The translations under genes and the position numbers were made by a program. DNA of 64,000 nucleotides from Escherichia phage S127 BCL3, in the sequence record OQ626344; one strand, written 5' to 3'. A model generated the notes under the pieces. That model worked only from the letters and a program-made list of their open reading frames with translations, searched no databases and was not told the origin of the DNA. Shown here piece after piece: positions 10,767-12,128 of this stretch. The first letter of the stretch is position 1, and the number at the start of each line of letters is the position of its first letter.

Positions 10767-10886
10767 AGCACCGAGCCCACATAAGTTTATCATGCTAAAG
10801 CATGGCCTGAAGAGGCAAACGTGCATAATTCCATCGTATTGGAACGTATAAACCCCGTTCACACTCTCATTTCCAGAGGAGATTTC

Positions 10887-11102
10887 ATGAAAATAGAAAT
10901 ATTTGGTGGGGCTGACAACACTCGTGGCCTGATTTACCTTGAATTCGATGAATCATACCTGCCAGAGGTGTTAAATATAGATGCTGTTGCGGAAGCCCTT
11001 GATGTAGACCCTAAAGATCTCTACTCCGGTGCTGAGATTGATGGTTGGGAAGAGACTCTGAACATTGATTTCAGTGAAGTAGTAGATGAACCTTTGGACT
11101 GA
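10887..11102 (+). CDS. small acidic protein, 71 aa
   Basis: Track ORF 10821..11102; ATG at 10887 with SD AGAGGAGA; MKIEIF start typical of this block. Confidence 0.6.
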   Translation: MKIEIFGGADNTRGLIYLEFDESYLPEVLNIDAVAEALDVDPKDLYSGAEIDGWEETLNIDFSEVVDEPLD

Positions 11103-11242
11103 CACACAAGCCTGCTTTGCAGGTTTAGCTGCTCAGCTAAGGTTCTGGCGGCACCTATAACATCTTCCAACTAAATTTCCTACCAACACAGTTACTTACC
11201 CACCACACATGACTGTTTGCTTGTTTAGTGAGCAGTCATCCC

Positions 11243-11270
11243 TTGACATTCTTGCCTATCTTGATAAAAT
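11243..11270 (+). promoter_or_regulatory. sigma70-type promoter with no ORF downstream
   Basis: TTGACA-16-TAAAAT. Confidence 0.6.
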
Positions 11271-11277
11271 TAAGTTC

Positions 11278-11545
11278 TTCTCTTTTCTTTTACCGAGTAA
11301 TTCGGGTTTTCTGTTCTCTTCGGTTTGAAGGGGTATGGAGATACACCTGAGTGAACAGGGTGAACAACCGAACCTTTAGCTATGGCATTAGCATGGCGAA
11401 GCGGACGGGTGACGAAAGAGGGGCCGGAGGACACCAGTCACTGCCATATAGTATATGGGTGATAACCTGAAGAGTCTGAATAAGTGTTTAAGTACCAGTC
11501 AGAGGAAAAGGTGAATGGTAGCCGAAGGGGGAGGGGGGTTTCTTA
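11278..11545 (+). ncRNA. candidate non-coding transcript (purine-rich, nested helices); ends not defined
   Basis: Starts downstream of the 11243 promoter; no SD or ORF. Pairings TATGGCA (11381-87) / TGCCATA (11442-48) and GTGAC (11409-13) / GTCAC (11437-41); GAAA/GAAG loops. Confidence 0.3.
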
Positions 11546-12128
11546 TATCTTTAATTTGTATACTTTATATACACTTGTAAACCAATTCAATTAGGATCTG
11601 TTTACCACACAAAGTGGATGGAGACAAATATCACCTATTAAACTTGAATTATTTATAGAAAATACCACAACACCACTTAAGTATTTGATTTTACACACAA
11701 ATCTTACAAATATCCTACCTCCATATTTAACATACTTGTAACATATCCCATATCCTACCTGCCTGGTCAATTTACTCCCACCACATCCCCACATTTTCCC
11801 TGTCTGTACTACCCCACCCCCGCCGGGAGTCCCGTCATATCTGGCTTCCCAGCAAATATCACACCCACAAATATCATCACCTGAAGAGGGTTTCATCCCA
11901 TAATACACACCTTGCCTGAAGAGCGCTTCATACACCACCTAAATTTTTTAATTGACCCCTCCCCGCCGCCGGAGAGGTTGGCTTTTCCCACACAGGCCTG
12001 AAGAGTCAGCCAGAAATATCTGAACAGGTCCAGTTATACCCCGATTTTGTGCTTGTCCTACAGGAGTGCTGCCCTGTCAGGAGCCGGTAGCGACTGGAGT
12101 GCTGCCAGGCGGACGGAATGGGAATACT

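Follow-up and report, generated by a model that had tools for sequence, protein, structure and literature searches.

A one-orientation 9-mer array upstream of the terminal repeat of an rV5-like Escherichia phage, a candidate recognition site for DNA packaging

What is a nine-letter word doing five times on the same strand beside a long stretch without genes? The question is raised by a 64,000-nt stretch of Escherichia phage S127 BCL3 (record OQ626344; here called the window), where the 9-mer CCTGAAGAG starts at 10806, 11466, 11880, 11915 and 11997 on the plus strand. An earlier note, made from the letters alone, had listed these five positions, and an exact-match count confirmed them. It proposed an oriented recognition site, for instance for a terminase or nicking enzyme, a replication protein or a transcription factor. 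The window comes from a Vequintavirus (rV5-like myophage), and more than 100 Vequintavirus genomes match the region at 90-98% identity.

The 9-mer at the concatemer junction

The plus-strand small genes end at 11102 and the minus-strand genes begin with 13662-14081. The 2.5-kb gap between them is gene-free in curated annotations. The record of the relative HdK5, whose first 500 nt are 94% identical to the window, begins and ends with an exact 459-bp repeat, and the two map to window positions 12108 and 12566. Several other GenBank records start at the equivalent of 12108 and others stop at that of 12566. Redundancies of 458 bp were reported in EdH4 and HdK5 (PMC6563267), and 459-bp repeats with a fixed packaging start in relatives (PMC7471380). 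Based on the HdK5 repeat ends, the record ends and the published repeats, the island corresponds to the concatemer junction and contains the direct terminal repeat (DTR). By this homology the five copies belong to unique DNA a short way in from the right end of the virion chromosome. Distances below are given relative to the DTR start.

10806-10814, plus strand: CCTGAAGAG copy 1, at -1302, in the spacer before the last small gene (10887-11102)
11466-11474, plus strand: CCTGAAGAG copy 2, at -642, within the ultra-conserved block 11216-11545
11880-11888, plus strand: CCTGAAGAG copy 3, at -228, with a tandem CAAATATCA pair directly 5' of it
11915-11923, plus strand: CCTGAAGAG copy 4, at -193, 35 nt after copy 3
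11997-12005, plus strand: CCTGAAGAG copy 5, at -111, ending 103 nt before the DTR start
12108-12566: DTR-equivalent region, 459 bp, with boundaries set by homology for this phage
about 11103-13661: non-coding island between converging gene blocks, delimited by the list of open reading frames and the annotation of relatives

The copies had been described as standing at the edge of the island. Copies 2-5 are in fact inside it, and copy 1 is outside, in a spacer bounded by two small genes (10581-10766 and 10887-11102), about 70 nt 5' of a gene. Spacing between successive copies is irregular (660, 414, 35 and 82 nt), and within the island none is found in 12108-12566 or right of that repeat. On both strands of the window we counted seven exact copies, whereas in 100 dinucleotide-preserving shuffles the mean was 0.60 and the count never exceeded 4. 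Two copies therefore lie outside the cluster, and not one as previously counted. The reverse-strand copy is at 41571-41579, one base off the position given before (41572-41580), and the overlooked plus-strand copy at 58702-58710 runs antisense within a 1890-codon stop-free frame of the minus strand.

The flanks of the copies had been called unrelated, which holds for most but not all of them, as copies 3 and 4 have 15 of 17 bases in common (CCTGAAGAGsGyTTCAT) and a C-rich box (CCCCwCCCCGCCG..GGAG) precedes both copy 3 and copy 5. CACACAA-like runs often stand 1-10 nt 5' of the 9-mer, and a CATAAT hexamer begins 10 nt past copy 1 and 11 nt past copy 3.

A whole-genome count and a check for conservation in relatives had been suggested as ways to examine the site, and both were done. 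In the complete HdK5 genome (139,328 bp) the word is found in seven plus-strand copies and one minus-strand copy, with about 0.95 expected per strand, and it is clustered rather than equally frequent across the genome. Five of the eight copies are in the 1.3 kb upstream of the right repeat. The other three are distant from it, occur on both strands and compare with about 1.9 expected in 139 kb; they are background. Both plus-strand copies among them are inside annotated genes. Clustering and orientation bias are thus far beyond chance.

The word was also found to be conserved at the locus. We aligned the window with 17 relatives (18 sequences). Substitutions common to at least two sequences were found in none of the 45 motif columns, as compared to 231 of the 1081 other non-coding columns. 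Mean pairwise diversity was 0.015 in the motif and 0.089 locally (local permutation P about 0.003), and Fisher's test against the flanks of 30 nt on either side gave P = 0.0026. Directly 5' of the motif the bases are free to vary. Across the alignment all five sites persist, copy 1 for example in 16 of the 17 relatives. Single copies are sometimes lost by one base change and at least three are kept in each phage, as expected for redundant sites. The 9-mers are under purifying selection.

One relative from IMG/VR has a 46-bp insert exactly after copy 1, reading CCTGAAGAG, then CCGCCCGAAGGGGTGACCTAGTCACCTGGCATAGCCAGCGAAAGAG, then GCAAACG (about 1163-1208 of the relative). The insert is the reverse complement of a palindromic element at 12771-12808 of the window, with a GAAGAG/GAAAGAG quasi-duplication, and judged from this arrangement it looks like a small mobile hairpin element. 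An IMG/VR scan for two motif copies 15-45 nt apart returned only unrelated coding repeats, and a specific 24-mer found two relatives only. String searches of the literature for the 9-mer matched primers and unrelated sequences only.

Recurrence of the word in other genera

The repeat of the Klebsiella phage KPP-1 (Mydovirus), 514 bp at 116,316-116,829, was determined by coverage and PhageTerm and is of the T7 type (PMC9862379). The KPP-1 island has almost no similarity to the window in BLAST, with one match of 37 nt. Still, CCTGAAG[A/T]G is found there on the same strand at -1327, -1275 and -317, together with an inverted copy within the repeat. The context of window copy 5, CCTGAAGAGTCAGCC, is much like KPP-1 CCTGAAGTGTCAGCC at -317. 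The repeat starts of the Seunaviruses PVP-SE1 and 4MG were placed by homology to KPP-1. PVP-SE1 has the word on the same strand at -553, -525, -501 and -173, and CCTAAAGAG at -422; 4MG has it on the same strand at -1538, -1486 and -63. Poisson probabilities for the three loci ranged from 5e-8 to 3e-4 per 8 kb.

In the Certrevirus P7_Pc two exact copies stand 32 nt apart, as compared with 35 nt between window copies 3 and 4, and one of them shares the flank of window copy 1 (CCTGAAGAGGCrAACGTG). Downstream of them stand C-rich boxes and CAAATATCAAGGGCAG, a sequence similar to CAAATATCGAGGCAG of the window. These copies are placed by synteny only, since the repeat position of P7_Pc is not mapped.

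As negative controls we used 43 kb of non-terminal Vequintavirinae DNA, namely the three loci of the homologue of gene 9264-9569 in Mydovirus, Seunavirus and Certrevirus, and found zero copies. These loci serve as controls only, because the gene sits away from the island in those genera. Zero copies were found also in the terminal regions of Phapecoctavirus and Justusliebigvirus (Stephanstirmvirinae), despite common flanking genes. The Phapecoctavirus Mt1B1_P17 has a word of its own upstream of its 328-bp repeat: TCATGGC(A) at -256, -79, -70 and -26, with ATGGCAA at -36 and no TCATGGC(A) on the other strand in 7.7 kb. Given the recurrence in four genera and the empty controls, the motif appears on sequence comparison as a subfamily-wide oriented feature upstream of the DTR, with Certrevirus included by synteny.

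The earlier note had remarked that the word contains CTGAAG and GAAGAG, and that this could be coincidence. CTGAAG and GAAGAG/CTCTTC are type IIS/IIG enzyme specificities, and the overlap does look coincidental, the word being conserved rather than avoided. We rejected a restriction target, as the word is clustered as well as conserved and the cross-genus variant CCTGAAGTG lacks GAAGAG.

The 9-mer is accompanied by other elements. An unbiased k-mer count of the island gave three enriched same-strand words: CCTGAAGAG, CTGTTTAC(G) with five copies and CAAATATC with five copies. The elements near the repeat are as follows.

11812-11829, plus strand: C-rich box 1, CCCCACCCCCGCCGGGAG; similar boxes are found in KPP-1 and P7_Pc
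11853-11876, plus strand: tandem CAAATATCA pair with 15-nt spacing; more copies at 11625, 11707 and 12014
11956-11977, plus strand: C-rich box 2, CCCCTCCCCGCCGCCGGAGAGG
12151-12157, plus strand: AAATATC, at +43 from the DTR start, a candidate cut-positioning element

In several genera the repeat has tandem AAATATCA pairs and C-rich boxes upstream of it; the KPP-1 pair is AAAATATCA, at -103 and -86. AAATATC is found at +43 in the window, HdK5, KPP-1, PVP-SE1 and 4MG, and at +44 in Mt1B1_P17. The first bases of the repeat are GGCGGAC in the window and HdK5 and GACGGAC in KPP-1, PVP-SE1 and 4MG (together GRCGGAC), while the repeat of Mt1B1_P17, from an unrelated subfamily, starts AACGCGA. The fixed offset from the repeat start suggests that AAATATC may act as a cut-positioning element.

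A possible role in packaging and its alternatives

The copies adjoin the DTR and the motif is kept in four related genera, which points to a protein recognition site for cutting and packaging. We tentatively favour, while holding it short of probable, the reading that the five copies are an oriented array to which the packaging machinery binds, similar to pacB and the CCTAAAG arrays of T7. In concatemers the 9-mers would stand on one side only of the single repeat copy at each junction. The packaging machinery, most plausibly an oligomeric small terminase subunit, would assemble on the array, mark the junction and set the packaging direction. The large terminase would then be delivered to cut at the repeat boundaries (12108 and 12566 of the window), with GRCGGAC and AAATATC at its fixed distance of +43 positioning the cut, and the repeat would be duplicated as in T7. 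We infer all three parts of this scheme, namely the protein binding of the 9-mers, the identity of that protein as terminase, and the cutting mechanism.

What stands of the oriented recognition site first proposed is its constraint, its specificity for the locus and its recurrence in three other genera, whose islands have no detectable BLAST similarity to that of the window. Among the candidates then listed, the terminase or nicking enzyme has gained weight, because an end of the virion DNA adjoins the last copy at 103 nt, a fact outside a note made from sequence only. A defined side near the cleavage, as in pac-type sites, is also seen: all copies are upstream of the DTR, and likewise in KPP-1, PVP-SE1 and 4MG.

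The recognition element of T7 adjoins the right-end repeat of the genome, on the side of the unique DNA. T7, like this phage, infects E. coli, has a short exact DTR and carries a one-orientation word at its genome ends that is rare elsewhere, CCTAAAG as compared to CCTGAAG here. We counted 22 plus-strand CCTAAAG in T7, with 16 of the 22 in or beside the 160-bp repeat, and 3 on the minus strand. These arrays are the SRL and SRR of Dunn and Studier. CCTGAAG[A/T]G itself is absent from T7. In both phages a promoter faces the junction: here the one at 11243, and in T7 phiOR, which at 39229 precedes the right repeat by 549 nt. In addition, T7 GTCACCTAAAGAGGGTC (39697-39713, about 80 nt before the right repeat) is one base off window copy 3, ATCACCTGAAGAGGGTT, over the 14 positions CACCTrAAGAGGGT, a likeness that may be coincidence or a common host-factor site. 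However, the T7 copies are also in the repeat and on both sides of it, about 13 nt apart, whereas here five stand on one side and the repeat has none. T7 also differs in being a podovirus that has an RNA polymerase of its own. Recognition of PacB in the T7 concatemer falls to the small terminase, and cleavage at PacC to the large subunit (PMC9860248). The proposed split here of recognition (9-mer array) and cut (GRCGGAC/AAATATC) resembles the pacB-pacC arrangement of T7 and T3, although the array is much more spread out.

The P1 pac hexamers, the SPP1 pacL/pacR boxes and the R sites of lambda cosB are likewise copies of a short box near the cut that are bound by an oligomeric small subunit. 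Unlike the present array they serve headful or cohesive-end packaging, are compact (about 100-200 bp) and are often in or beside terminase genes rather than in a gene-free island.

Several points weigh against packaging and keep our confidence low. No binding protein for the 9-mers, small terminase included, was identified. The array is irregular and spread over 1.2 kb, wider than characterised pac sites, and copy 1 and its counterparts in KPP-1, 4MG and P7_Pc are up to 1.5 kb from the repeat with small genes between. AAATATC, with its fixed offset and its occurrence beyond the subfamily, is arguably a better candidate for a terminase site than the 9-mer. Some copies overlap transcription signals, which fits a transcriptional role at least as well. 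The DTR boundaries of this phage are taken over from relatives by homology. To our knowledge, no function has been proven for the T7 repeat arrays either.

The alternatives make use of two further features of the island.

11243-11270, plus strand: sigma70-type promoter, TTGACA-16-TGaTAAAAT, aimed at the DTR, with 11 of 12 matches and the TG of an extended -10 element
11277-11545, plus strand: purine-rich block of 0.96-1.0 identity, containing copy 2 and ending in GGGGGAGGGGGG (11527-11538)

The promoter is nearly invariant among relatives, and 11216-11545 is the best-conserved stretch of the island (0.96-1.0 identity, 17 relatives), for which an R-loop-primed origin and a non-coding RNA are both conceivable. 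The DNA that follows GGGGGAGGGGGG, between copies 2 and 3, is AT-rich (about 11545-11760).

A transcriptional role would make CCTGAAGWG a promoter-associated box bound by a phage transcription factor, either an activator box in place of a weak -35 element or an operator over the -35 element and spacer, and would control rightward transcription towards and into the terminal repeat and of the last small gene. One copy in KPP-1 and 4MG forms TTGACC/TGAAGwG-N10-TATACT, another in KPP-1 forms TTGACCTGAAGTG-N10-TATTCT, and both KPP-1 sites were called by a promoter scan. In KPP-1 and 4MG the motif also occupies the loop of a terminator hairpin. All copies share the direction of the 11243 promoter, and copy 1 has its gene about 70 nt downstream. 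A -10-like hexamer begins at +10/+11 in 5 of the 16 cross-genus sites against a background of 10.5% (P = 0.02, with sites that are not independent); 2 of the 5 positive sites are orthologous, so that this statistic is inflated, and the other 11 sites lack such an element. The window copies make poor would-be -35 hexamers and none passed the promoter scan, and no plus-strand gene is downstream of copies 2-5. A general promoter class would be expected before genes elsewhere, but the two other plus-strand copies of HdK5 lie within coding sequences. The arrangement resembles the T4 middle promoters, in which a MotA box stands about 12 nt upstream of the -10 element, in that a 9-bp box is followed by a -10-like hexamer after 10-12 nt in the same 5 of 16 sites. 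It differs from them as most sites lack the -10 element and the box is not found before genes across the genome, and no MotA/AsiA homologue was found among the neighbouring genes scanned. We consider this role unlikely. A wider scheme, which we rate as improbable, joins it to packaging as a modular terminus code at the Vequintavirinae junction, made up of CACACAA, CCTGAAGWG, AAATATC(A), the C-rich boxes and the GRCGGAC cut site with AAATATC at +43. CCTGAAGWG would here be the box of activator-dependent promoters, and transcription into the repeat would be needed to open the junction so that the repeat can be duplicated and the DNA packaged, like the phiOR coupling at the T7 concatemer junction but with host RNA polymerase and a dedicated phage factor.

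The same promoter could instead belong to a replication origin, for which the G-run GGGGGAGGGGGG would favour an R-loop, the AT-rich region would unwind and the 9-mers on its flanks would bind an initiator or helicase loader as accessory sites. Promoter-primed initiation is known from T4 oriF/oriG and from the T7 origins, and the strong invariant promoter, the 96-100% conservation of the transcribed block and the G-run followed by AT-rich DNA with repeated CAAATATC and ATATCCTACC words would suit it. We find an origin quite unlikely, as the 9-mers are neither tandem nor helically phased, whereas iterons are typically 17-22 bp and phased, and as in KPP-1, where the motif is present, the non-coding DNA before the repeat is only 334 bp long and BLAST gave no counterpart of the block. 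No initiator-like gene was present among the scanned neighbours. The change of GC skew at the locus was ascribed in the rV5 paper to the switch of transcription direction (PMC3606486). At the RNA level the motif could sit in hairpin loops of a non-coding RNA starting from 11243 or form a ribozyme-like CUGANGA core. Copies 2-5 are downstream of the strong promoter, and hairpin contexts are found in KPP-1, 4MG and PVP-SE1 (GGAGCC-UGAAGw-GGCUCC) and in the window at copy 5 (GGC(C)UGA-AGAG-UCAGCC) and copy 4 (UGAAG-AGCG-CUUCA). Their register differs from copy to copy, however, so that sequence and not structure is conserved, and copy 1 is upstream of the promoter. The RNA fold of 11277-11550 was no better than that of shuffles (z = -1.26), and a search of 10200-13800 against Rfam, hammerheads included, gave no relevant family at E <= 10. 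A role as RNA is thus very improbable. Most improbable of all is chance, or a by-product of local duplication or composition: the island is compositionally odd and rich in short repeated words, but seven copies stand against 0.6 expected with no shuffle reaching seven, the flanks are mostly unrelated, the 9-mers are better conserved than their surroundings, and the word recurs in four genera.

Within the genus the block 11277-11545 varies too little to allow a covariation analysis, and KPP-1 gave no homologue of it. Rfam gave no match in the whole window at the gathering threshold, and a search for tRNAs in the window found none. A hammerhead ribozyme, considered for the CUGANGA core in the motif, was rejected, as neither a GAAA box nor in-register helices were seen by eye and no model matched. 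Inspection by eye for DnaA boxes, IHF sites and Chi in the region gave no matches.

Novelty and other features of the island

The terminal repeats of these phages are already published, and T7 is a known case of oriented short repeats next to a short terminal repeat. The motif, its conservation in four genera, AAATATC at +43 and the GRCGGAC end signature appear undescribed in the literature searched. In the rV5 paper the island is drawn merely as a "non-coding" box (PMC3606486), and this was the only published description of it that our literature search returned. The box of 2-2.5 kb has been unexplained since that genome paper, and the virion ends are now placed inside it. The oriented word, AAATATC at its fixed offset and GRCGGAC are concrete packaging-signal candidates for the whole subfamily. 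Therapy and biocontrol collections make wide use of its members, among them the rV5-like phages, PVP-SE1, the Klebsiella Mydovirus and the Cronobacter and Pectobacterium Certrevirus. Possible uses include transducing particles, packaging-defective contained phages, correct genome start coordinates in annotation, and experimental work on the formation of short terminal repeats in large myoviruses. Should the sites be transcriptional, they would define a new regulator-operator pair at the end of the genome.

The small neighbour genes, scanned against PHROG and Pfam, gave no function beyond a generic "transcriptional regulator" PHROG (phrog_639) for 9264-9566, and no homology links the gene after copy 1 with the one that follows the KPP-1 copies. 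The first gene right of the island, 13662-14081 on the minus strand, encodes 139 aa (PHROG 12277). Its product is about 90% identical in Phapecoctavirus (Stephanstirmvirinae), where the gene also adjoins the terminal repeat. The likeness of the protein and its place beside the repeat in both suggest that a terminus-adjacent module may have been exchanged between the subfamilies.

The enriched word CTGTTTAC(G) starts at 11598, 12341, 12655, 12670 and 13157, with variants at 12685 and 13209, and four of the five copies are inside or right of the repeat. Elsewhere in the window the 8-mer CTGTTTAC has one plus-strand copy and zero on the minus strand, and the 9-mer CTGTTTACG occurs nowhere else. 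Immediately left of the DTR a direct repeat, ACwGGAGTGCTGCC, is found at 12060-12073 and 12093-12106, ending 2 nt before the DTR start; its first copy is deleted in HdK5, and the patch 12050-12095 is indel-rich. From the exact right boundary of the DTR, TGACAC, TGACAA and TGACGC repeats follow every 9-20 nt (12567-12630), and this is the most variable part of the island among relatives. Within the repeat, at 12254-12269, is a Fur-box-like GAGAATnnTTATCATT, present also at 24332 of the window, with 14-15 of 19 matches to GATAATGATAATCATTATC. It is found within the terminal repeats of Vequintavirus, Phapecoctavirus (positions 60 and 239) and Mydovirus (4417), and may be a site for host Fur or another regulator at the genome end. 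Some 19 GenBank records that bear the name "Campylobacter phage" match this region at 87-92% identity; the one we fetched (A135, MG065690) is marked UNVERIFIED, and these records are probably mislabelled or contaminants.

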